From Candidatus Eiseniibacteriota bacterium (lineage in GTDB: Bacteria; Orphanbacterota; Orphanbacteria; Orphanbacterales; Orphanbacteraceae): a DNA stretch of 10,210 nt. Numbering within the stretch: the first letter of the stretch is position 1; each line of letters opens with the position of its first letter. Under the pieces are notes generated by a model. It saw nothing but the letters and a program-made list of their open reading frames with translations. It ran no database searches and was not told where the DNA came from. Shown piece after piece: positions 2,758 through 10,210 of the stretch. The stretch is from positions 1 through 10,210 of the forward strand of contig VGIW01000107.1 in the NCBI GenBank assembly GCA_016867715.1, written 5' to 3'. The translations under genes and the position numbers were made by a program.

Positions 2758-3951
2758 TTATTCCAAGATCCAGATGTCGTAGGTGCCGCCGCGGTTCGAG
2801 GCGAAGGCGATCCGGTCGCCGCGCGGGGACCAGGCCGGCTCCCGGTCGTCGGCGAGATGGCTCGCGAGGATCTTCTTCCGGCCGCTCGCCGGGTCGACCG
2901 CCCAGATGTCGTACTGCACGTTCCGGTTGTCGGCGAAGGCGAGGAAGGGGCCTTTCGGGCAGAAGGCGGGGTGGATCTCGCGCACCATCGGGTCGTTCGC
3001 GCCGGGGACGAGGGAGAGGATCGGGTCGGGCGGCTCGACCGTCGCGAGGTCCGATCCGCCCAGCTGGTTCGAGACGAACGCGAGGGCCGTGCCGTCCGCG
3101 CGCCACGTGGCGGACGACTCCGCGGTGGCGGCGGCGGTGTACGCCTCCTCCGGTCCGGACGGTGCTCCGCTCGCGATGGCGACGGAGTAGATATTCCAGT
3201 TTCCGTCCCGGTTCGAATGGAACGCGAGGCGCGCGCCGTTCGGCGACCAGACGGGACCCCGATCCGCGAAGGAATTCGTCGTGACCTGCGTCTCCTCCCC
3301 CCCCTCCGCCAAAACGGTCCAGATGTCCCAGTTCCCCGATCGGTTCGATGCGAACGCGATCCGGTCCCCCGCCGGCGACCAGTGCGGCGAGGCGTCGTCG
3401 TTCGAGGACGAAACGAGAACGGAAGGCGAGCCCCCGGCCGAGGGGACTGTGTGGAGATCGCGAAGGCCGCTTACACCTCTTGATGCATAAACGATCGTGC
3501 TCCCGTCGGGAGACCAGGCCGGCTCCCGCTCCTCCTCGCTCGGGCTTCCGATCGAGCGGAGGGTTCGTTCGGCGAGGAGCGCGCTCACCGTGGCGGATCC
3601 CTTCGCGCCGTCGGCGTCCTCCGCCTCGACCGTGATCTCGATCGCGCCGGCATCGAAGAGGAACGCGGGGAAGTAGAGGGAGAAGGGGGAGGTCGAAGCG
3701 GTCGCGAAGATCGTTCCCGCGGCTTTCAGGCGGATCGCCGCGATGCCGTCCTCGTCGGACGCGAGGCCGGTGACGGTGAAGCCGACGCCGGAGAGCGTAT
3801 CGCCCGATCGCGGGGATTGGATCACGACCGAAGGGGGAGTCCCGCCGTTTGTCGGCGACTCGTGCTTCCCGCAACCGGCGGGAAGAAGGGCGAGTGCGAT
3901 TGCAAGAGCGAGAAGCCGCTCGAAAAGACGCGGCCGGTGCGTGGTCGACAT
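2758..3951 (-). CDS. TolB-like periplasmic protein: signal peptide/probable lipoprotein, Ig-like domain, PD40-type beta-propeller repeats
   Basis: The ATG at 3949-3951 has a GGAGGA Shine-Dalgarno sequence 7 nt upstream. The N-terminus MSTTHRPRLFERLLALAIALALLPAGC carries a non-canonical lipobox. The repeat pattern …PAWSPDG…IAFASNR.G.WDIW… recurs at least five times, which is the PD40/WD40-like TolB signature. The gene ends at TAA 2758-2760. Confidence 0.8.
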   Translation of the reverse strand: MSTTHRPRLFERLLALAIALALLPAGCGKHESPTNGGTPPSVVIQSPRSGDTLSGVGFTVTGLASDEDGIAAIRLKAAGTIFATASTSPFSLYFPAFLFDAGAIEITVEAEDADGAKGSATVSALLAERTLRSIGSPSEEEREPAWSPDGSTIVYASRGVSGLRDLHTVPSAGGSPSVLVSSSNDDASPHWSPAGDRIAFASNRSGNWDIWTVLAEGGEETQVTTNSFADRGPVWSPNGARLAFHSNRDGNWNIYSVAIASGAPSGPEEAYTAAATAESSATWRADGTALAFVSNQLGGSDLATVEPPDPILSLVPGANDPMVREIHPAFCPKGPFLAFADNRNVQYDIWAVDPASGRKKILASHLADDREPAWSPRGDRIAFASNRGGTYDIWILE

Positions 3952-4059
3952 GCTCGTTCCTCCGCGGGTTCGCCGCCGGTCGGGACTCGCCTCGAGGCCC
4001 TCTGCGAGTTGACGGCGCGAGGCGCCCGATGCTACGTTCCGCCGGATGGCGCGCCGACA

Positions 4060-6066
4060 ATGGGGAGGGCACCCGTGAGCTCCCGATGGATTCTCCCTCT
4101 ACTCCTTCTTATCGGCCTCGCGATGCGCCTCTATTACCTCCACGGCATCGAGGCGAGCCCCGAGTTCCGAGTCCCTCTCGTCGACAACCGATGGTATCAC
4201 GATCGAGCGCTCGCCTGGTCGGAAGGAAGGGCGGGGTCCGAGCTCGACCTCTTTCGCGCGCCGTTCTATCCGTTCCTCCTGGGACAACTCTACCGGGTCT
4301 TCGGATCCGGCCCGTATGTTGCGCGGATCTTCCAAATGCTTCTCGGGCTCGCGGCGATCCTGCTTGTGCACCGGATCGGGAACCGCGCCTACGGGCCTCC
4401 GGTCGGGCTCGTCGCGGCCGCCTTTTCCCTCCTCTACAATCCCTTTATCTATTATGAAAACGAGACGCTCACGACCTCGCTCCTTCTCTTTCTCCTTCTT
4501 CTCGGCTTCTTCTTGCTTCTCGGGCTCCAGGAGGGAAAGAGATTTTGGGCGCTCGCCGCGGGGGCGGTCCTCGGGCTCGCGGCGGCGACCTATCCGACGG
4601 CTCTCGCCCTTTACCCGTTCGTTCTCCTCTGGAGCGTGTGGTGCGCGCGGAGCCGCGCGATGCGGACGCTCCCCGTGCTCGCGCCTCTCGCGATCGGCCT
4701 CGCGCTCCCTCCCCTCGCGGCGGCGGCGTGGAACACGAGAACGCACGGCGCCTTCGTCCTCGCGACGCAAGGGGGCGTGAACCTTTATATCGGAAACAAT
4801 CCGAACGCGGACGGAAGGACGGCGATCGTTCCCGACTGGCGCGACATCGCCTACGAAACGAAGGAGTACGAGGACAACGTCTCCCTCGCGGCGATCCGGG
4901 TCGCCGAGCGGGAGACCGGACGGAGGCTCTCGCCGGGCGAGGCGGACCGCTTCTGGCGGGAGCGTGCGCTCGAGTGGATCGCCTCGCGCCCCGCCGACGC
5001 GCTCCGCCTCTTCGGGCGAAAGATCGTCTATCTCGCGAGCGACGAGGAGATCCCGAACAACCGTTTTCTCACCCCCCACATCGAGGAGTACGCGCCGCTT
5101 CTTCGGCGCCTCTCGCTCGGGGCGGGGTTTTTCATCGCGTTCGGGATCGCGGGGCTCCTTCTCTCGGGGGGGCGCGCCGGAGCGCGCTCGCTCCTTGCGC
5201 TCTTTCTCCTCGCGCAAGCGGCGGTTCTCGTTCTCTTCTTCGTGTGCGCGCGCTTCCGCCTTCCAATGATGCCCTTCTTCCTCGTTCTGGCGGCGCACCT
5301 CGTCGTGCGGCTCGCGCGCGAAGGGCGGCGCTTTCCGATTCGCGTCGTTCTCTTCGTGGCGGTGCCGCTCCTTCTCGTCGCGCACTCGAATGCTTTTGAC
5401 GTGAACGTTCCGGGGGATCTCGCCTCGCTCTACTTCTCGCGGGGCCACGCGTTCGCCGAGGTCGGGCGGCTCGATCGGGCGGAGGAGATGTACCGCGAGG
5501 CGCTCGCGCTCGATCCGAGCGATCCGCGAGTGCTCATCAACCTCGGGGCGGTCCTCGCGCGGGCCGGGAGAGCCGATGAGGCGGAGCGCGTGCTCCTGAC
5601 GGCGCTCGATCGGGATCCCCGCTACGCGCCGTTCGTTTGGAACAACCTCGCGCTCGCACGTCTCGTCGCCGGCGATCCGGAGGGGGCTCTTCGCTTCTTC
5701 GAGCGATCGATCGAGGCGGCTCCGGGGGACGCGGATGTGCACGCGAACGCGGCGAACGCGCTCCTCGCGCTCGGAAGACACGAGGAAGCTCTCGCGCGCT
5801 ACGACGAGGCGCTCGGACGAGGGACGGCGCGGGCGCTTCCGACGCGCCTCGGGCGCGCGCTCGCCCTCTCGGCGCTCGGAAGGGGGAAGGAGGCGCTGGC
5901 CGAGACGGAATCGGTCGCGGCCGCGGCGCCCGGCGTTCCAGAAGCGTGGGCGGTCCTCGCCGAGGTCGCCGCCGCCACGGGCGAGCCGGAGAGGGCGGAG
6001 GAGGCGCGGGCGCGCTTCCAGGCGCTGACCGGCCGCCGCCCGGGGCCGGCCGACCTCCCGTTTTGA
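4060..6066 (+). CDS. membrane glycosyltransferase of the GT39/PMT (ArnT-like, GT-C fold) family fused to C-terminal TPR repeats
   Basis: The N-terminal two-thirds has many hydrophobic segments (…PFYPFLLGQLYRVFG…ILLVHRIGNRAYG…FLLLLGFFLLLG…), typical of PMT_2/ArnT-type GT-C enzymes. The C-terminal roughly 220 aa is Ala/Leu/Arg-rich with TPR periodicity (…ALALDPSDPRVLINLGAVLARAGRADEAE…). The ATG at 4060 is one candidate start. An alternative GTG at 4075 has a GGAGG Shine-Dalgarno sequence 6 nt upstream. The in-frame extension up to 3817 is rejected because it overlaps the divergent gene start. The stop codon is TGA 6064-6066. Confidence 0.7.
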   Translation: MGRAPVSSRWILPLLLLIGLAMRLYYLHGIEASPEFRVPLVDNRWYHDRALAWSEGRAGSELDLFRAPFYPFLLGQLYRVFGSGPYVARIFQMLLGLAAILLVHRIGNRAYGPPVGLVAAAFSLLYNPFIYYENETLTTSLLLFLLLLGFFLLLGLQEGKRFWALAAGAVLGLAAATYPTALALYPFVLLWSVWCARSRAMRTLPVLAPLAIGLALPPLAAAAWNTRTHGAFVLATQGGVNLYIGNNPNADGRTAIVPDWRDIAYETKEYEDNVSLAAIRVAERETGRRLSPGEADRFWRERALEWIASRPADALRLFGRKIVYLASDEEIPNNRFLTPHIEEYAPLLRRLSLGAGFFIAFGIAGLLLSGGRAGARSLLALFLLAQAAVLVLFFVCARFRLPMMPFFLVLAAHLVVRLAREGRRFPIRVVLFVAVPLLLVAHSNAFDVNVPGDLASLYFSRGHAFAEVGRLDRAEEMYREALALDPSDPRVLINLGAVLARAGRADEAERVLLTALDRDPRYAPFVWNNLALARLVAGDPEGALRFFERSIEAAPGDADVHANAANALLALGRHEEALARYDEALGRGTARALPTRLGRALALSALGRGKEALAETESVAAAAPGVPEAWAVLAEVAAATGEPERAEEARARFQALTGRRPGPADLPF

Positions 6067-6121
6067 ACGTTTGTACCTGGTACGAAGTTGGGTAGACGTT
6101 TTGAACGTCTGTACCAGGTAC
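6061..6121. repeat. two copies of TTTTGAACGT(T/C)TGTACC(T/A)GGTAC, each containing the palindrome GTACC-N-GGTAC
   Basis: The copies lie at 6061-6083 and 6098-6121, and their palindromic centres are complementary. They sit directly at and after the GT39-TPR stop codon. Confidence 0.75.
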
Positions 6122-6143
6122 AAGGGGGACCAGGACTGGAGTA

Positions 6144-6159
6144 TGTATCGGATACCGAC
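6144..6159. repeat. REP-like palindrome TGTATCGGATACCGAC, same family as 2620-2756
   Basis: The GTATC-G-GATAC core is identical to the copies 3.5 kb upstream. Confidence 0.65.
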
Positions 6160-6226
6160 GCGCGCCATGAGGACGAAAAGGCTGATGGAGCGTCCGTTTC
6201 GGGGAAGATAGGCGAAAGAGGTAAAA

Positions 6227-6299
6227 GAGGTATCAGGTACGTCTCAACCAGGAAGAAAGAGGTATCAGGTACGTCTCAGGAAAGGTATCAGGTACCGTG
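6227..6299 (+). promoter_or_regulatory. array of three direct repeats with 31-bp period (AGAGGTATCAGGTACGTCTCA twice, AAGGTATCAGGTACCGTGG once) abutting the tadA start
   Basis: The core GGTATCAGGTAC sits at 6229-6240, 6260-6271 and 6284-6295. The last copy ends one base before the GTG at 6297. The local region is GC-poorer than its surroundings. Confidence 0.6.
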
Positions 6300-6776
6300 G
6301 ATCACGTACGCTGGATGCGCCTCGCGCTTCTTGAAGCGGAGGAGGCGGCACGAGAGGGGGAGGTCCCGGTCGGCGCGGTCGTCATCCACGAAGGGCGTGT
6401 GATCGGGCGGGGCCACAACCGGGTCGAGGGGACGAACGACCCAACCGCGCACGCCGAGATCCTCGCGATCGGCGCTGCCGCCGAGGCGCTCGGCTCGTGG
6501 AGGCTCGAAGGCGCGACCCTCTACGTCACGCTCGAACCGTGCTTCATGTGCGCGGGGGCGATCGTCCTCGCGCGTCTCGACCGTCTCGTCTTCGGCGCGA
6601 CCGACCCGAAGGCGGGCGCGTGCGTCTCGCTCGCCGGCGTCGTCCAGGACCCGCGCCTCAACCATCGGGTCGATCTCCTCCACGGCATCCTCGAAACCGA
6701 GTCGCGCGCGCTCCTCGAGGATTTCTTCCGAAAGAAGCGAGAGGAGGCCGAGGGGACCCCGCGAGAAGACGGGTAG
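6297..6776 (+). CDS. tadA: tRNA-specific adenosine(34) deaminase
   Basis: The CDA-fold zinc motifs HAE(ILAI) and (E)PCFMCAGA are present. The N-terminus [24 protein letters not shown] matches the TadA consensus. The product is 159 aa. The start is GTG 6297 (an ATG at 6315 is an alternative) and the stop is TAG 6774-6776. Confidence 0.88.
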
Positions 6777-6907
6777 AAGCGGGGAGACGACCCCGGTTCT
6801 CCGGCCCTCCTCGAAGAACGCGCGCGTCCCGCACCTCCCCGAGCTCCGCATCTGGATCGCCCCGGCGGCTGCCGAAGTCCGCGTGCGTTCCCCGCCAAAC
6901 CGAGTCT

Positions 6908-7013
6908 TGTATCGTGTCCCGGAATTCCCCCAACAGGGGATTTGTCCAATTCAGTATCGTGTCCCCGAATTTCTCGAATGACTTGATTCAGTATCGTGTC
7001 CCCGAATGTCTCC
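6908..7013 (+). repeat. three direct repeats (T/C)(T/A)GTATCGTGTCCC(C/G)GAAT at 6908-6927, 6953-6970 and 6989-7006, with GGAATTCC and CCCC-CAACA-GGGG palindromes between the first and second copies
   Basis: The repeats were read directly from the sequence. They lie in a 572-bp intergenic region whose GC content is clearly lower than the window average. Confidence 0.75.
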
Positions 7014-7293
7014 CGATCGGTTGCGCCGGCGTTCCCGAGTCCCTGAACTCGGTGGATGCCCAGGTTGCACGGATTCCGTCGACGGTCGCCGGATTTCCTT
7101 CGCCGAGTTCCGCCGCGATCGGCTGCGCGATCCCCCGGTCGCATTGCATAAGAAGAGCTGATAGATCCGATTCAATCCGTGCGAAGAAAAAGTAGCCGCC
7201 CGTTCCCCGTTCTCACTACCTTGCCCTCATCGCTCGCCCGGTCGGTCCGAGCAAGGGAGGATCCGACCGGCACGCGAAACCGCGCTCGCCTCT

Positions 7294-7302
7294 CCCCCCC
7301 CC
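7294..7302. repeat. homopolymeric C9 tract 47 bp upstream of the secreted-protein start codon
   Basis: The sequence is ctCTCCCCCCCCCacggg. Confidence 0.8.
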
Positions 7303-7348
7303 ACGGGCGGCCGGAAACGAAACACCCTTCGAAAGGAGTATCCAGAGC

Positions 7349-8137
7349 GTGAAGAAGGTACGGATGTTTGTTGCGAGCTTCGCGGCGGTCCTCATGCTGG
7401 CCGGAACCGGCTCGGCCGTGATGACGAACACTTCGGGCGATCAGCCCCTCATCCACAGCGGGCACGTTCTCACGAGCCCGGCGGTCACATCGGTCGGTCG
7501 CATTCTCTACGCGCCTTCTGAAGACGATGATCCGGCGTATCGCGCGGCGATCTCGGCGGCGGCCGGCGGAGCGGTCGTCGATTACTTCGACGCTCGCGTC
7601 GCGACCCCTGACCTCCCGTTGCTCCGCGAGTACGACTGCGTGCACACGTGGGCCAACTACCCGTACGCGGACAACGTTCTCTTCGGCGACAACCTCGCCG
7701 AGTACGTCGATATCGGCGGGCACGTGGTTCTCGGCGTCTTCTGCACGTTCACCTTGGGGAACTACCTGAGCGGGGCGATCATGACGCCCGCGTACAGCCC
7801 GGTCGTCTCTCCCTCGGGGAGCAACCATTATTCCTACAGCGCGTACGACGGTCACGGAACGACCTGCATCCACTCGGGCGTGTCGGCCTACGGATCGTCC
7901 TATCGTGACATGCTCGCGCTCCAGGGCGGCGGCCTCGTCGCCGGCAACTTCCAGGACGGCGAGATCGCCCACGCGTATCGCCCCGACTTCGCTGTGGTCT
8001 ACAGCAACGGCTCCGGCGGTTATCCGATCTACGGCGACGGCGACTGGCCGCTCCTCCTCGCGAACTCGTGCGCCTGCGACGGGTCGACCGCGGTCGAGGA
8101 GACGACCTGGGGCCGCGTGAAGACGTTCTTCCGGTAG
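7349..8137 (+). CDS. secreted Tyr/Gly/Ser-rich hypothetical protein, 262 aa with a Sec signal peptide
   Basis: The GTG at 7349 has an AAAGGAG Shine-Dalgarno sequence at 7332-7338. The signal peptide is MKKVRMFVASFAAVLMLAGTGSA. The mature protein is rich in Y, G and S, has 6 Cys and ends …CACDGSTAVEETTWGRVKTFFR. I recognise no domain. The stop codon is TAG 8135-8137. Confidence 0.7.
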   Translation: MKKVRMFVASFAAVLMLAGTGSAVMTNTSGDQPLIHSGHVLTSPAVTSVGRILYAPSEDDDPAYRAAISAAAGGAVVDYFDARVATPDLPLLREYDCVHTWANYPYADNVLFGDNLAEYVDIGGHVVLGVFCTFTLGNYLSGAIMTPAYSPVVSPSGSNHYSYSAYDGHGTTCIHSGVSAYGSSYRDMLALQGGGLVAGNFQDGEIAHAYRPDFAVVYSNGSGGYPIYGDGDWPLLLANSCACDGSTAVEETTWGRVKTFFR

Positions 8138-8166
8138 ATCGACGATTCTCATTGGAACCCTTGCAG

Positions 8167-8198
8167 GGGCGGCTCCGCGCAAGGAGCCGCCCATTTTC
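8167..8198 (+). terminator. Rho-independent terminator
   Basis: A 10-bp stem GGGCGGCTCC/GGAGCCGCCC with loop GCGCAA is followed by ATTTTC, about 30 bp after the stop codon. Confidence 0.65.
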
Positions 8199-8265
8199 GC
8201 GGGGACCCGAACCCCTCGCTTCGCGCGCGGCGGAAGCGCCCCGAGCGTCCGCTCTCGGAAGCCAC

Positions 8266-8294
8266 TTGCAGCAGGTCGCTCAACCCGGTAACCT
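8266..8294 (+). promoter_or_regulatory. candidate promoter for the second tRNA/ffs cluster (TTGCAG, 17-bp spacer, TAACCT)
   Basis: Only a hexamer match. It is followed by a GGCGGGC…GCCCGCC hairpin before tRNA-Ser at 8379. Confidence 0.3.
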
Positions 8295-8378
8295 ACCGGG
8301 GAGGATGCTCGAGACTCGAGGCGGGCCTTCGGTCCTTTGCAAGCCGCCCGCCCGAAAGCCGCGAGGTCCATCCTCGCC

Positions 8379-8465
8379 GGAGAGATGCCGGAGTGGTTGA
8401 ACGGGACGGTCTCGAAAACCGTTGAGGGGGCAACCCCTCCGAGGGTTCGAATCCCTCTCTCTCCG
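8379..8465 (+). tRNA. tRNA-Ser (anticodon CGA), type II, with CCA encoded
   Basis: The acceptor stem is GGAGAGA/TCTCTCC. The anticodon stem is ACGGT/ACCGT and the loop CTCGAAA gives anticodon CGA. There is a long variable arm (GAGGGGGCAACCCCTCC), T arm GAGGG-TTCGAAT-CCCTC and discriminator G, then CCA. Confidence 0.9.
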
Positions 8466-8543
8466 CCAGCGACGCGCGCGCGAGAAGCCGCCGGAGAGGA
8501 CTCGGAACCGGGTGACGTCTTCCTCCGGAGCTGATAGAATGCC

Positions 8544-8630
8544 GGAGAGTTGCGAGAGCGGTTGAATCGGCGTGATTGGAAATCACGTGTACGGGCAACC
8601 GTACCGAGGGTTCGAATCCCTCACTCTCCG
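8544..8630 (+). tRNA. tRNA-Ser (anticodon GGA), type II, with CCA encoded
   Basis: The acceptor stem is GGAGAGT/ACTCTCC. The anticodon stem is CGTGA/TCACG and the loop TTGGAAA gives anticodon GGA. There is a long variable arm (TGTACGGGCAACCGTACC), T loop TTCGAAT and discriminator G, then CCA. Confidence 0.9.
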
Positions 8631-8680
8631 CCATCAATGGGCGCGGCCGCTCGGGCCGCCGTTTGGTCGAGAGTCGGGTC

Positions 8681-8753
8681 GGGGATGTAGCTCAGTTGGG
8701 AGAGCGCTGCCTTCGCAAGGCAGAGGTCGGCGGTTCGATCCCGCTCATCTCCA
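8681..8753 (+). tRNA. tRNA-Ala (anticodon CGC), with CCA encoded
   Basis: The acceptor stem GGGGATG/CATCTCC carries the G3:U70 alanine identity pair. The D arm is GCTC-AGTTGGGA-GAGC. The anticodon loop TTCGCAA gives anticodon CGC. The T loop is TTCGATC and the discriminator is A, then CCA. Confidence 0.9.
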
Positions 8754-8775
8754 CCATTTCATTGATTGATCAAGG

Positions 8776-9092
8776 GTCGCCGCCTGAACAGTGTGGGTCG
8801 TGCTAGACGGGGAGTTAGCGGTGCCCTGAACCCGCAATCCGCTCCAGCGGGGTTGAATCCCTTTCCGAGGCCCGGCCTCGGCGGAGGCAGGGAACGAGAG
8901 ACGGCGTGGAAGGCCAGGTCCCGCGCGATGGGGGACCGTGAACCCCGTCAGGACCGGAAGGTAGCAGCGGTAAGCGGATCTTTCCATGCGCCGCGGGCTC
9001 GCTTGGTCTGAGCCGCGCTCTCGCCGACCGCTTCGTCCGGGAGGGTCGACGAAAGGTGCACGGCCTACTCCTCTCGTCCGGGTGAAACGCGG
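8776..9092 (+). ncRNA. ffs: signal recognition particle RNA, long form with extended helix 5; boundaries approximate
   Basis: The domain IV motif GTCAGGACCGGAAGGTAGCAGC at 8947-8968 matches the consensus GUCAGGNCCGGAAGGNAGCAGC, with the GGAA tetraloop at 8956-8959. Hand pairing shows that 8917-8935 pairs with 8980-9000 (CCCGCGCGAUGGGGGA with UCUUUCCAUGCGCCGCGGG). Further out, 5' GGCCAGG pairs with 3' CUUGGUC, and CGAGAGACGGCG at 8895-8906 pairs with CGCCGCGCUCUCG at 9012-9024. The helix is therefore longer than in a 4.5S-type RNA. The location immediately upstream of dnaX is the classical ffs position. Confidence 0.75.
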
Positions 9093-9116: not shown

Positions 9117-10210
9117 GTGAGCTATCTCGTTCTCGCCCGCAAGTGGCGCCCCGCGCGCTTCTCGGATCTCGTGGGCCAGGCGCACGTGGCCCGCACGCTC
9201 GAGAACGCCATCCGCCAGGAGTGCGTCGCGCACGCGTATCTCTTCGCCGGGCCGCGCGGGGTGGGGAAGACCTCGACCGCGCGCATCCTTGCCGCCGCCC
9301 TGAACTGCGAGAAGGGGCCGACCCCCGAACCGTGCGGGACCTGCCCGCACTGCCGGGAGATCGCCGCCGGCCGAAGCCTCGACGTCCTCGAGATCGACGG
9401 CGCCTCGAACCGCGGGATCGACGAGGTCCGCGACCTCCGCGAGAACGTCCGCTACATGGCCTCCGCCGGGAAGCGGAAGGTCTACATCATCGACGAAGTT
9501 CATATGTTAACCGTCGAGGCGTTCAACGCTCTTCTCAAGACGCTCGAGGAGCCCCCCTCGCACGTCCTCTTCGTGTTCGCGACGACCCGACCGACGAAGG
9601 TCCCCGCGACGATCCTCTCGCGGACGATCCGCTTCGATTTCCGCCGCATCGACGCGAAGAGCATCGTCGGGCGCCTCGAGGCGATCGTGAAAGCGGAGAA
9701 GATCGAAGCGGAGGAGAAGGCGCTCCATCTTGTCGCGCGCGCGGCGGACGGAAGCATGCGCGACGCGCTCTCGCTCCTCGAGCAGGCGCGCGCCTTCGGA
9801 GGCGGGAAGCTCGCGGCGGCGGAGACGGAGGAGGCGCTCGGGATTGTCGACGAAAACCATCTCTTCGCGATCTCCGCGGCGGCCCGCGCGGGGGATCCGC
9901 TCGCCGCGATGACCACGATCGACGAGGCGGCGAGCCGGGGGCGGGATCCTTCCGATTTCCTCATCGCCCTCGAGGAGCACTTTCGGAACCTCCTCGTCGC
10001 GCGCGTGAGCAAGAACCCGGGCGCCCTGATCGACGCCGCCGAGGAGACGATCGCGCGCTACCGAGAGGAGGCGGCCGCCTTCCACCCGGACGATCTCATT
10101 CGCATGCTCACTCTTCTCGGAGAGGGAGGGCGGGAGATTCGCTTCTCGCAGAAACCGCGCCTCGTCCTCGAGATGCTCCTTCTTCGTCTCGTTCGCATGG
10201 ACTCGACCGT
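9117..10210 (+). CDS. dnaX: DNA polymerase III subunit gamma/tau, 3'-truncated at the window edge
   Basis: The GTG at 9117 has an AAAGG motif about 9 nt upstream. The N-terminus is LARKWRPARFSDLVGQ. The Walker A motif is GPRGVGKTS and the zinc module is CxxCxxC…C (CGTCPHC). The Walker B motif is YIIDEVHML, and sensor and Arg-finger regions follow (LLKTLEEPP, SRT). The frame is open to the window end. Confidence 0.95.
   Translation, partial: MSYLVLARKWRPARFSDLVGQAHVARTLENAIRQECVAHAYLFAGPRGVGKTSTARILAAALNCEKGPTPEPCGTCPHCREIAAGRSLDVLEIDGASNRGIDEVRDLRENVRYMASAGKRKVYIIDEVHMLTVEAFNALLKTLEEPPSHVLFVFATTRPTKVPATILSRTIRFDFRRIDAKSIVGRLEAIVKAEKIEAEEKALHLVARAADGSMRDALSLLEQARAFGGGKLAAAETEEALGIVDENHLFAISAAARAGDPLAAMTTIDEAASRGRDPSDFLIALEEHFRNLLVARVSKNPGALIDAAEETIARYREEAAAFHPDDLIRMLTLLGEGGREIRFSQKPRLVLEMLLLRLVRMDST

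Follow-up and report, generated by a model that had tools for sequence, protein, structure and literature searches.

The repeats upstream of the tadA gene most likely belong to a hairpin family scattered over a few Candidatus Eisenbacteria genomes and are not a control region dedicated to tadA. The window, i.e. the whole stretch of DNA analysed, is a contig of 10,210 nucleotides from a metagenome-assembled genome (MAG) assigned to Candidatus Eisenbacteria. From the 10.2 kb of this genome that were read, we consider it probable that the repeats represent, at this locus, a family of short intergenic palindromes that is lineage-specific and resembles REPs and REPINs. The units differ in number, sequence variant and arrangement among related genomes and are located at sites of rearrangement.

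The palindrome family

The features discussed below are as follows.

2618-2757, no strand assigned: array A, same family, four perfect GGTATCSGATACC(GG) 13-mers starting at 2620, 2644, 2729 and 2742
4075-6066, plus strand: PMT_2/TPR glycosyltransferase gene, upstream of tadA
6059-6083 and 6097-6121, plus strand: two 25-nt direct repeats CGTTTTGAACGTYTGTACCWGGTAC, 92% identity, spacing 38
6070-6124, plus strand: REPIN-like hairpin doublet, 13 nt, 100% complementary
6145-6155, no strand assigned: solitary palindrome GTATCGGATAC, core as in the four copies of 2618-2757
6215-6296, plus strand: locally amplified unit (one partial copy, two full copies, one shorter copy)
6297-6776, plus strand: tadA (tRNA adenosine-34 deaminase), identified by Pfam and a 100% protein match
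6904-6930, 6949-6975 and 6986-7012, plus strand: second repeat family, three (A)GTATCGTGTCCCCGAAT, downstream of tadA

The pattern GTAYCNGRTAC was matched exactly ten times in the contig, against an expectation of 0.01, and none of 200 shuffles reached this number. Some of the ten are tandem duplicates of others and do not count as independent, which leaves a minimum of about five founder units. All ten are non-coding and fall in two intergenic regions, 2621-2753 (3' of a PD40 gene) and 6073-6295 (between the PMT/TPR glycosyltransferase gene and tadA), where the arrays begin 0-6 nt past the PD40 and PMT/TPR stop codons. The region of divergent promoters (3952-4075) has no match, nor do the sequences preceding the tRNA genes. 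The core of this first family is GGTAYC-N-GRTACC, or more broadly GGT-RY-C-N-G-RY-ACC, and its unit pattern is written GGTRYCNGRYACC.

The stem that a single unit of 11-13 nt can form by itself is limited to 5 bp, with a loop of 3 nt, and doublets in the window give stems of 13 bp. Perfect inverted pairs with complementary centre bases are found at 2620/2644 (C/G) and 6071/6111 (T/A), direct copies at 2729/2742 and 6230/6262/6285. The arrays expanded through local tandem duplication: the duplicated segments include unique flanks (23-mers 100%, 25-mers 92% and 57-mers 84% identical), and those of 25 and 57 nt take in the 3' ends of genes. The cores are spaced, start to start, by 38, 34, 85, 32 and 23 nt in the tadA spacer and by 24, 85 and 13 nt in array A, so neither array has the constant spacing in multiples of the helical turn of a phased operator array or iterons. 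A MITE was also considered and rejected, since only the 11-mer cores match as terminal inverted repeats and the borders are without target-site duplication.

The array upstream of tadA

The identification of the open reading frame 6297-6776 as tadA, proposed in the earlier note, was confirmed by Pfam (MafB19-deam, 2.4e-42; dCMP_cyt_deam_1, 1.3e-30), and the product is a 100% match to a Candidatus Eisenbacteria protein named tRNA adenosine(34) deaminase TadA. This identical protein occurs only on a contig of the same sequence; the nearest TadA otherwise is 85% identical. The GTG at 6297 is the first start codon past an in-frame TAA (6222-6224), and similarity to the relatives starts at codon 2 (GAT CAC). 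The spacer 6067-6296 is indeed GC-poor, with 51.3% against 66.4% across the window. An independent Logan assembly (L001, five samples) is 100% identical over 3184 bp spanning the array, which is thus not an assembly artefact.

Repeats are truly present in front of tadA: two copies of AAAGAGGTATCAGGTACGTCTCA (6224-6246 and 6256-6278) are 100% identical, and they are accompanied by a partial copy AAAGAGGTA at 6215-6223 and a third, shorter copy GGAAAGGTATCAGGTACC at 6279-6296. The three pre-tadA copies represent one unit with its purine-rich flank, multiplied by tandem duplication of the slippage type. The exact 31-bp period claimed earlier is wrong; the three copies of GGTATCAGGTAC start at 6230, 6262 and 6285, and with spacings of 32 and 23 bp there is no constant helical phasing. 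The last copy was correctly placed one base short of the GTG as far as its GGTAC is concerned, which ends at 6295, and its complete palindrome GGTACC directly adjoins the start codon. The one sequence resembling a Shine-Dalgarno for tadA is the purine run GGAAAGG (6279-6285) of this third copy. In the predicted fold of 6215-6296, copy 1 pairs with copy 2 and copy 3 with tadA codons 1-7 (-29 kcal/mol, z = -2.3, 4 of 200 shuffles equally good).

A pair of repeats further upstream had also been reported. It exists as the 25-nt direct repeat listed above, the first copy of which overlaps the TGA stop (6064-6066) of the PMT/TPR gene, but it is better read as a single perfect inverted repeat of 13 bp. 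The arms TTGTACCTGGTAC (6071-6083) and GTACCAGGTACAA (6111-6123) are perfectly complementary and enclose a 27-nt loop that contains a small inner hairpin, GACGTTTTGAACGTC. Folded as RNA, 6070-6124 reaches -29.7 kcal/mol (z = -5.7), which none of 200 shuffles equalled. The stem lies 4 nt past the PMT/TPR stop codon and is followed by AAGGGGG, without a T-run. The solitary palindrome at 6145-6155, the sixth in this spacer, had been overlooked in the earlier note.

A sigma-70-like promoter, TTGACG-N18-TACGTT, precedes the PMT/TPR gene at 4009-4038. In 5900-7300 neither promoter-like sites of this class nor terminator-like sites were found, and no GC-rich hairpin with a T-run, as in an intrinsic terminator, occurs there. 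A canonical terminator is located elsewhere in the contig, after tRNA-Arg (about 1731-1760). Since no promoter of its own was detected, tadA is probably transcribed from the PMT/TPR promoter, as part of an operon in which the PMT/TPR gene probably comes first. The repeats would then be carried as intercistronic RNA.

Transcribed REP copies in operons stabilise upstream mRNA. The hairpin past the PMT/TPR stop could likewise act as a 3' exonuclease barrier or partial block, as intercistronic REPs do in E. coli. Translation is reportedly reduced when a REP lies at most 15 nt from a stop codon (Liang, Rudd and Deutscher, 2015). The last unit, as the putative ribosome-binding site of tadA, may lower its translation by pairing with the first codons. 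Such effects on tadA would be by-products of the repeat family and not the work of a purpose-built regulator; a regulatory side-effect may exist, but an incidental one.

Against the suggestion that the array encodes a dedicated small RNA or leader, a scan of the whole window with the Rfam covariance models gave no match at E <= 1 between 6000 and 6300. The array is moreover conserved neither in sequence nor in arrangement. A more specific proposal is that TadA regulates itself by substrate mimicry, the repeat UACG imitating the anticodon loop of tRNA-Arg(ACG) and being bound or edited. TadA recognises UACG in a stem-loop, the tRNA-Arg(ACG) gene (1651-1724) lies in the same window as the UACG-bearing repeats, and TACG occurs on the plus strand at 6081, 6238, 6270 and 6307 where roughly 0.9 would be expected. 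This enrichment results from duplication of the unit, however, and the units of three relatives (L003, L212 and L246) are without TACG. Mimicry of the tRNA-Arg anticodon arm finds no support in the predicted folds, none of which has UACG correctly positioned within a 7-nt loop like that of an anticodon, and we regard autoregulation of this kind as very improbable.

Array A and the second repeat family

The second array, 3.5 kb away, directly adjoins the 3' end of the PD40 gene on the minus strand (stop 2758-2760). It contains a 57-nt duplication of a unit together with the 3' end of that gene (2644-2700/2742-2798), and its minus-strand fold reaches -51.3 kcal/mol (z = -4.6). By synteny it occupies the position of the EncFtn gene in relative L002 (GCA_043818685.1). 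The nearby encapsulin gene is truncated at its 5' end (Linocin_M18 profile positions 13-253, E = 4e-67) and carries an in-frame stop. Array A sits at a site of deletion and decay, with encapsulin truncated and EncFtn missing in comparison with L002.

The three copies of the second family downstream of tadA each start with the first-family half-site GTATCG. This unit was also found as an inverted pair in relative L246 (72-124; ERZ24794656 assembly) and downstream of tadA in L002 (5957-5978). No RNA structure was predicted for 6904-7012 (z = +0.3).

Comparison with related genomes

Similarity to L002, the sole relative with which the spacer was aligned, stops at the last PMT codons and starts again at tadA codon 2. 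No homology was detectable between the 230-bp spacer and that of L002, and the non-homologous stretch extends a few codons into each flanking gene. The spacer was also considered as a relic of the TMEM260-type glycosyltransferase gene that is present in L003, L004, L005, L246 and L247; this was rejected, as blastx of 6067-6296 gave no significant match.

The comparison of tadA upstream regions proposed in the earlier note yielded related units in only three of 12 close relatives (L003, L212 and L246), in differing arrangements. L003 (GCA_043809585.1) carries GGTATCGGATTCC, GGTATCGGGTTCC and GGAATCTGATACC, with a pre-tadA fold of -39.3 kcal/mol (z = -2.9). Four units, paired, precede tadA in L212, one of them overlapping a stop codon. 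L246 has a perfect 21-bp hairpin, AGTAACCAGATACCCTATT...AATAGGGTATCTGGTTACT (-30.9 kcal/mol, z = -8.1). A second copy of its unit AATAGGGTAYCYGGTT is found at 9429-9494, 15 nt past an unrelated histidine-kinase gene, so that two non-syntenic loci lie within 11 kb, with doublet stems of 16-21 bp. The L246 unit is not itself palindromic; its inverted copies are separated by 5-nt and 34-nt spacers. In L002 two copies of GGTGCCAGGCACC are located 3' of PD40. Among the genomes the middle dinucleotides vary (AT, AC, GC) and the symmetry is retained.

No units precede tadA in L002, L004, L005/6, L127, L207, L210, L244, L245 and L247. Two of these nine have a tadA that overlaps its upstream neighbour or almost touches it, L004 being one in which it overlaps the preceding gene and is operonic; L127 and L245 have a promoter of the same sigma-70-like type directly before tadA. 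Units were also absent from 79 more distant tadA loci, and exact GTAYCNGRTAC from all 80 metagenome tadA loci L127-L206 (360 kb), one of which is 84% identical and the others 66% or less. The sampling of relatives is biased, every locus having been fetched via tadA.

A universal element shared across phyla was considered as well. The double-palindrome pair pattern gave at least 120 matches in genome contigs, with no Eisenbacteria record among those listed, and 15 in viral contigs, where two control palindromes of matched composition gave 6 and 10. Chance matches to this pattern are raised, as a hairpin with one matching arm counts twice and (GGTACCN)n heptamer tandems match too. The universal element was therefore rejected, the control counts in viral contigs being of the same order.

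Four genomes (the window, L003, L212 and L246) carry first-family units right before tadA, an observation that speaks against the REP-like interpretation; it could reflect selection for a function there rather than neutral repeat turnover, although the sampling is biased. One form of selection would be an intercistronic hairpin of the PMT-tadA operon that sets the dosage of TadA in a subgroup of Eisenbacteria, through partial termination, processing or occlusion of the start codon. The strong hairpins that separate tadA from its upstream gene in the window, L003 and L246, and the paired units of L212, would fit, as would the predicted pairing of the GUG and first tadA codons with unit 3, the seeming lack of a tadA promoter and the operonic tadA of L004. 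The four genomes, however, conserve neither the sequence, number and spacing of the units nor their distance to the start codon, and the nine other close relatives are without a pre-tadA hairpin element. The tadA-proximal fold only marginally surpasses its shuffles, and such units are also found without a cistron following them, in array A and at 9429-9494 in L246. Such a selected element has a small but appreciable probability. Slightly less probable in our estimation, and still tentative, is an undescribed, untagged Eisenbacteria family of REP/REPIN type with palindromic arms, repeatedly co-opted as an intercistronic hairpin that sets TadA versus glycosyltransferase expression; this would explain why units were kept before tadA in four genomes despite complete turnover of the sequence around them.

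Palindrome symmetry and the fapO operator

Cooperative binding of a regulator to phased sites, as first suggested for the array, gains no support from the irregular spacing and the lack of the element before tadA in most close relatives and all 79 distant loci. The perfect 6-1-6 palindromes also suit recognition by a dimeric DNA-binding protein, a second point against the REP-like interpretation. A FapR-like or other helix-turn-helix dimer might bind GGTAYC-N-GRTACC and repress or activate tadA and its neighbours. The units are perfect or near-perfect palindromes, the last copy coincides in part with the region of ribosome binding and translation start of tadA, three other genomes have related palindromes before tadA, and symmetry is kept while the middle dinucleotides change. 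The three copies next to tadA moreover share their 11-nt core, GTATCAGGTAC, identically with the Bacillus subtilis FapR operator fapO, TTAGTATCAGGTACTAA (PMC5788913), and the consensus GTAYCWGRTAC also covers the other window copies with A or T at the centre.

The complete 17-bp inverted repeat of fapO, TTAGTAYCWGRTACTAA, is not present, however: the core agrees in 11 of 11 positions, and the outer bases, TTA/TAA in fapO and GAG/GTC here, in none of six (PMC5788913). fapO lies in promoters of fatty-acid or phospholipid synthesis genes in genomes that encode FapR, whereas no promoter-like site to be occluded was found in the spacer and the Pfam scan of the window showed no fatty-acid or phospholipid gene nearby, the neighbours being PD40, the PMT/TPR glycosyltransferase, tadA and the encapsulin pseudogene. 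The present palindromes further differ from fapO in belonging to another phylum and in their many copies, half of which are 3' of genes with nothing to regulate, array A bordering a pseudogene. Their spacing is irregular, most orthologous tadA upstream regions are without units, and the non-palindromic L246 unit, inverted with two different spacers, is easier to reconcile with a hairpin than with a fixed protein dimer. FapR is not known to have been described outside the Firmicutes. An operator array is accordingly judged unlikely, and the 11-nt identity to a known operator should not be taken as evidence of regulation.

Significance

A dispersed REP-type element, named in the earlier note as an outcome that would refute regulation, is favoured by the second array, by the units of relatives, including a non-syntenic locus, and by the position of all copies just 3' of genes, in hairpin doublets. 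If this is true, the elaborate array before the essential tadA gene is explained without a new regulator, as repeat DNA expanded in an operon spacer. This DNA even provides the sequence around the start codon that tadA now uses, and it shortens both neighbours by a few codons. As a dispersed family the repeats are a fairly ordinary finding. Their value is mostly descriptive: they add a family of short palindromic repeats to a phylum that is represented by metagenomes alone, and they provide a clear example of repeats at sites of gene loss (encapsulin, EncFtn) and of gene-end duplications. The importance would be greater if the hairpins tune TadA dosage.

Comparison with known repeat systems

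No REP family is known to have been described for this uncultured FCB-group phylum. REPIN doublets are mobilised by RAYT transposases, which are of the IS200/IS605 Y1 type and flanked by REPs; no RAYT or other transposase was found among the window ORFs scanned against Pfam. REPs are dispersed in tens to hundreds of copies per genome, and the 10.2 kb read here contain two separate intergenic regions with units. REPs are short stem-loop repeats, located mostly downstream of coding regions and often as dimers, and untagged REP-like families are known (PMC3733652). REPINs are characterised as two inverted REPs with a spacer (PMC3337134). Like the REP/BIME/REPIN elements, the present repeats are short palindromic intergenic units lying mostly just 3' of genes, in clusters and in inverted doublets with long hairpins, variable among related genomes and associated with rearrangements. 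All ten copies in the window are extragenic and mainly downstream of coding regions, and the inverted doublets and clusters typical of REPIN and BIME are present. Classical REPs measure 20-40 nt with stems of 5-13 bp, whereas the present unit is shorter (11-13 nt) with a 1-nt centre, so that both arms of a doublet are palindromes in their own right.

The REP tag GTAG adjoins none of the ten units and CGTC three, in GGTACGTC (6237-6244 and 6269-6276) and AACGTCTGTACC (6104-6115). CGTC-tagged REP families are likewise without a dedicated transposase and 3' of genes (Di Nocera et al. 2013, PMC3733652). They differ in their 8-9-bp stems that begin with A/T pairs, 4-5-nt loops and CCA tail, all missing here (PMC3733652).

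A further likeness is to the mycobacterial MIRUs. The units here are 23-32 bp, non-coding and palindromic, whereas MIRUs are 40-100-bp units whose small ORFs overlap with the stop and start codons on either side. As in MIRUs, the tandem copies occupy an operon spacer and reach as far as the start codon of the gene that follows.

Gene content of the window

The window is a contig from a Candidatus Eisenbacteria metagenome-assembled genome (MAG). Genes were mapped by third-position GC content, Pfam and ARAGORN/Rfam.

Features of the window (coordinates, strand, description)
107-1063, plus: DUF4143/AAA_14 ATPase fragment
1178-1724, plus: tRNA-Ser, tRNA-Ser and tRNA-Arg(ACG), the last at 1651-1724
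about 1770-2636, minus: encapsulin pseudogene
2758-3951, minus: PD40/Big_7 lipoprotein
4075-6066, plus: PMT_2/TPR glycosyltransferase
6297-6776, plus: tadA
6904-7012: three direct copies of (A)GTATCGTGTCCCCGAAT downstream of tadA (family 2)
7349-8137, plus: secreted protein, family unknown
8379-8756, plus: tRNA-Ser, tRNA-Ser and tRNA-Ala
8798-9063, plus: SRP RNA

The encoded TadA has a 100% identical match in a protein named for Candidatus Eisenbacteria. Its gene has tRNA-rich surroundings (four tRNA-Ser, one tRNA-Ala and tRNA-Arg(ACG)), with the SRP RNA downstream; tRNA-Arg(ACG), the substrate of TadA, lies 4.6 kb upstream. In relatives L004 and L247 the tadA neighbourhood is followed by dnaX-ybaB-recR, an order known from Bacillus. 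The long minus-strand ORF at 7172-8371 is non-coding (GC3 0.62), the true gene being the plus-strand ORF of 262 aa at 7349-8137 (GC3 0.87), which has a signal-peptide-like N-terminus. A 262-aa gene was called at the matching place in relative L245, and a plus-strand call sharing the stop was found at this place in Logan contig L001. Sub-threshold Rfam matches to Plastid-psbl-rps4 and Plastid-ycf2 at 1221-1446 and 8414-8630 (minus strand), antisense to tRNA genes, were dismissed as spurious echoes of tRNA sequence.

The repeats before tadA

The spacer upstream of tadA (6067-6296) is GC-poor, with 51.3% GC against 66.4% for the whole contig. Two copies of AAAGAGGTATCAGGTACGTCTCA were found without mismatch at 6224-6246 and 6256-6278, the first preceded by a partial AAAGAGGTA; a shorter third copy, GGAAAGGTATCAGGTACC (6279-6296), runs up to the GTG at 6297. 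The exact 31-bp period described in the earlier note was wrong: the starts of the palindrome cores (6230, 6262 and 6285) are 32 and then 23 bp apart. The repeat pair noticed further upstream is present, but its members measure 25 nt instead of 23 (6059-6083 and 6097-6121, 92% identical), and the first of them includes the TGA that ends the glycosyltransferase gene. A Logan contig from an independent assembly, recorded in five samples, shows no difference across 3184 bp covering the whole region, so the array is not an assembly artefact.

The shared core of the repeats is an 11-mer palindrome, GTAYCNGRTAC (family 1), observed 10 times in the window versus 0.01 expected; none of 200 shuffles reached 10.

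Copies of GTAYCNGRTAC in the window (start positions)
6073, 6111, 6145, 6230, 6262 and 6285: six copies in the tadA spacer
2621, 2645, 2730 and 2743: four copies in the first array, as perfect 13-mers GGTATCSGATACC

The first array is located 3.5 kb from the tadA spacer, directly after the minus-strand PD40 stop codon. Coding sequence, the divergent PD40/PMT promoter region and the DNA ahead of the tRNA genes hold no copy in the window; the latter two regions have ordinary promoters of sigma-70 type, for example TTGACC-N16-TAGAAT and TTGACG-N18-TACGTT.

Two inverted pairs have complementary centre bases and form perfect 13-bp stems, GGTATCCGATACC with GGTATCGGATACC at 2620/2644 and TTGTACCTGGTAC with GTACCAGGTACAA at 6071/6111. 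Predicted folds reached -29.7 kcal/mol (z = -5.7) for the hairpin at 6070-6124 and -51.3 kcal/mol (z = -4.6) for 2612-2760 on the PD40 strand. The direct tandem copies take along flanking unique sequence: the two identical 23-mers before tadA, the 25-mers with the stop codon of PMT, and a duplication of 57 nt (2644-2700 / 2742-2798, 84%) that takes in the last PD40 codons. Such an anatomy is characteristic of a palindrome around which DNA was amplified locally by a slippage-type process. Independently placed binding sites, one of the readings offered in the earlier note, would look different. An operator array for a transcription factor is quite improbable.

Distribution in related genomes

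The tadA loci of 12 relatives, with TadA 75-85% identical, were compared, and units were found upstream of tadA in three.

Units upstream of tadA in close relatives
L003: four units, GGTATCGGATTCC, GGTATCGGGTTCC, GGAATCTGATACC and GGTATCTGGTCAG, in a 111-bp spacer
L212: units in two pairs
L246: one perfect 21-bp hairpin, TCAGTAACCAGATACCCTATT-acagc-AATAGGGTATCTGGTTACTAA (fold z = -8.1)

No unit precedes tadA in L002, L004, L005/6, L127, L207, L210, L244, L245 and L247. In L004 tadA and the preceding gene overlap, and in L127 and L245 tadA lies directly behind a promoter of the type found ahead of the window's PMT gene. The exact palindrome was absent from 79 more distant tadA loci and L127 (360 kb in all).

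Family 1 is not confined to tadA. The L246 unit forms a second doublet at 9429-9494 of that locus, 15 nt after an unrelated histidine-kinase gene, and in L002 two perfect GGTGCCAGGCACC palindromes were found 3' of PD40, where the window has its first array. A functional reading is kept alive by a single observation, namely that four genomes carry units in the spacer before tadA, but every locus was fetched through tadA and the sampling is therefore biased. A selected RNA module setting TadA dosage is considered unlikely.

In L002 the family-2 repeat GTATYGTGTCCCCGAMTTT follows tadA in one to two copies (5957-5995), and in L246 it forms an inverted pair at an unrelated place (72-124). Eisenbacteria loci totalling 119 kb hold its core TGTCCCCGA 7 times, versus 2 occurrences in 355 kb from other tadA loci. 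For the window array at 6904-7012 no RNA structure was predicted.

Genomic context of the arrays

The first array is located at a site of gene decay. The gene order in L002 is encapsulin, EncFtn, PD40, and the EncFtn gene is absent from the window. The encapsulin frame still matches Linocin_M18 profile positions 13-253 (E = 4e-67), with its 5' end and start replaced by the repeat array and one in-frame stop.

On alignment with L002, no homology was detectable between the tadA spacers; it ends in the final glycosyltransferase codons and restarts exactly at tadA codon 2 (GAT CAC). The TadA N-terminus in the window is about six residues shorter than in relatives, and the GTG and the sole Shine-Dalgarno-like run (GGAAAGG) are supplied by the repeat unit. 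Most relatives (L003, L004, L005, L246, L247) carry a PMT_2/TPR and then a TMEM260_N/TPR glycosyltransferase gene before tadA; the window and L002 have the first only, and no remnant of the second was detectable in the window spacer.

Similar hairpins in other phyla

A scan for two family-1 13-mers within 30 nt, in which a hairpin with one matching arm always counts twice, gave more than 120 loci from many phyla. The matches were either heptamer tandem repeats, (GGTACCN)n, or intergenic hairpins belonging to genome-specific families. In a viral collection the pattern matched 15 times versus 6 and 10 for two composition-matched control palindromes; because these numbers are similar, a special cross-phylum element was rejected.

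Many unrelated phyla contain heptamer tandem repeats of the form (GGTACCN)n or (GGTAYCN)n (L009, L040, L042, L046, L049, L073, L074, L084, L091 and others); in Streptomyces locus L084 they make up an array of 21-nt period. Bacteroidota MAG loci (L010, L021, L025, L041, L052, L061, L067, L087, L093, L097, L106) share a sequence-conserved intergenic hairpin, GGTATCGGATACC-N5-GGTATCCGATACC, whose 13-mer is that of the first array. In genomes of Saprospiraceae, Chitinophagales and Bacteroidia it is found at unrelated loci, mostly right behind the 3' ends of genes, and it has no Rfam family. In Omnitrophota JACPAY01, a GGTATCaGATACC...GGTATCtGATACC hairpin lies inside two c-di-GMP-I-type riboswitch matches (L020 6008-6114, minus; L024 4700-4816, plus). 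It belongs to a family with dispersed copies in that genome (5 loci among the first 120 matches listed) and seems to have been inserted into a riboswitch stem or to form one.

Possible effects on tadA expression

Given that the tadA spacer holds no promoter-like site and that relatives carry tadA in an operon, transcription of the repeats probably starts from the promoter at 4009-4038. In E. coli operons, intercistronic REPs stabilise the message upstream and lower expression downstream, and REPs close to a stop codon reportedly reduce translation. By analogy, the hairpin 4 nt past the PMT stop codon could act in the same way. The last unit before the GTG may pair with codons 1-7 of tadA, which would hide the GUG; this modelled fold has a marginal gain over shuffles (z = -2.3). 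Mimicry of the TadA substrate through UACG motifs is hardly credible.

Comparison with known systems

The 11-mer GTATCAGGTAC at 6230-6240, 6262-6272 and 6285-6295 is identical to the core of fapO, the B. subtilis FapR operator TTAGTATCAGGTACTAA (PMC5788913). fapO is used in malonyl-CoA biosensors. The match was treated as a short-palindrome coincidence, because the six outer operator bases mismatch in the window copies, the gene context has no link to lipid synthesis, half of the copies are located 3' of genes, and the L246 unit is not itself palindromic, with inverted copies 5 or 34 nt apart, a geometry that fits a hairpin and not a fixed protein dimer.

The alternative raised in the earlier note, that the array belongs to a dispersed REP element, is favoured, as units occur at unrelated loci, between genes and in doublets. 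The array before tadA is real, yet a fairly ordinary feature. With copies counted in the 10,210-bp window, it is rather likely that the repeats form a short, untagged REP/REPIN-like family. They are filed as REP-like and not as a proven REP family because a classical REP is longer than this unit, the units bear no GTAG or CGTC tag in the defined sense, and no RAYT lies within the window. REPs and REPINs are described as repeats that are intergenic, lie just 3' of genes, form inverted doublets or clusters, vary among relatives and occur at rearrangement sites (PMC3733652; PMC3337134, PMC2817692). The window family is alike in all these respects: its units are intergenic and just 3' of genes, are arranged as inverted doublets and clusters, differ between related genomes and mark sites of rearrangement.
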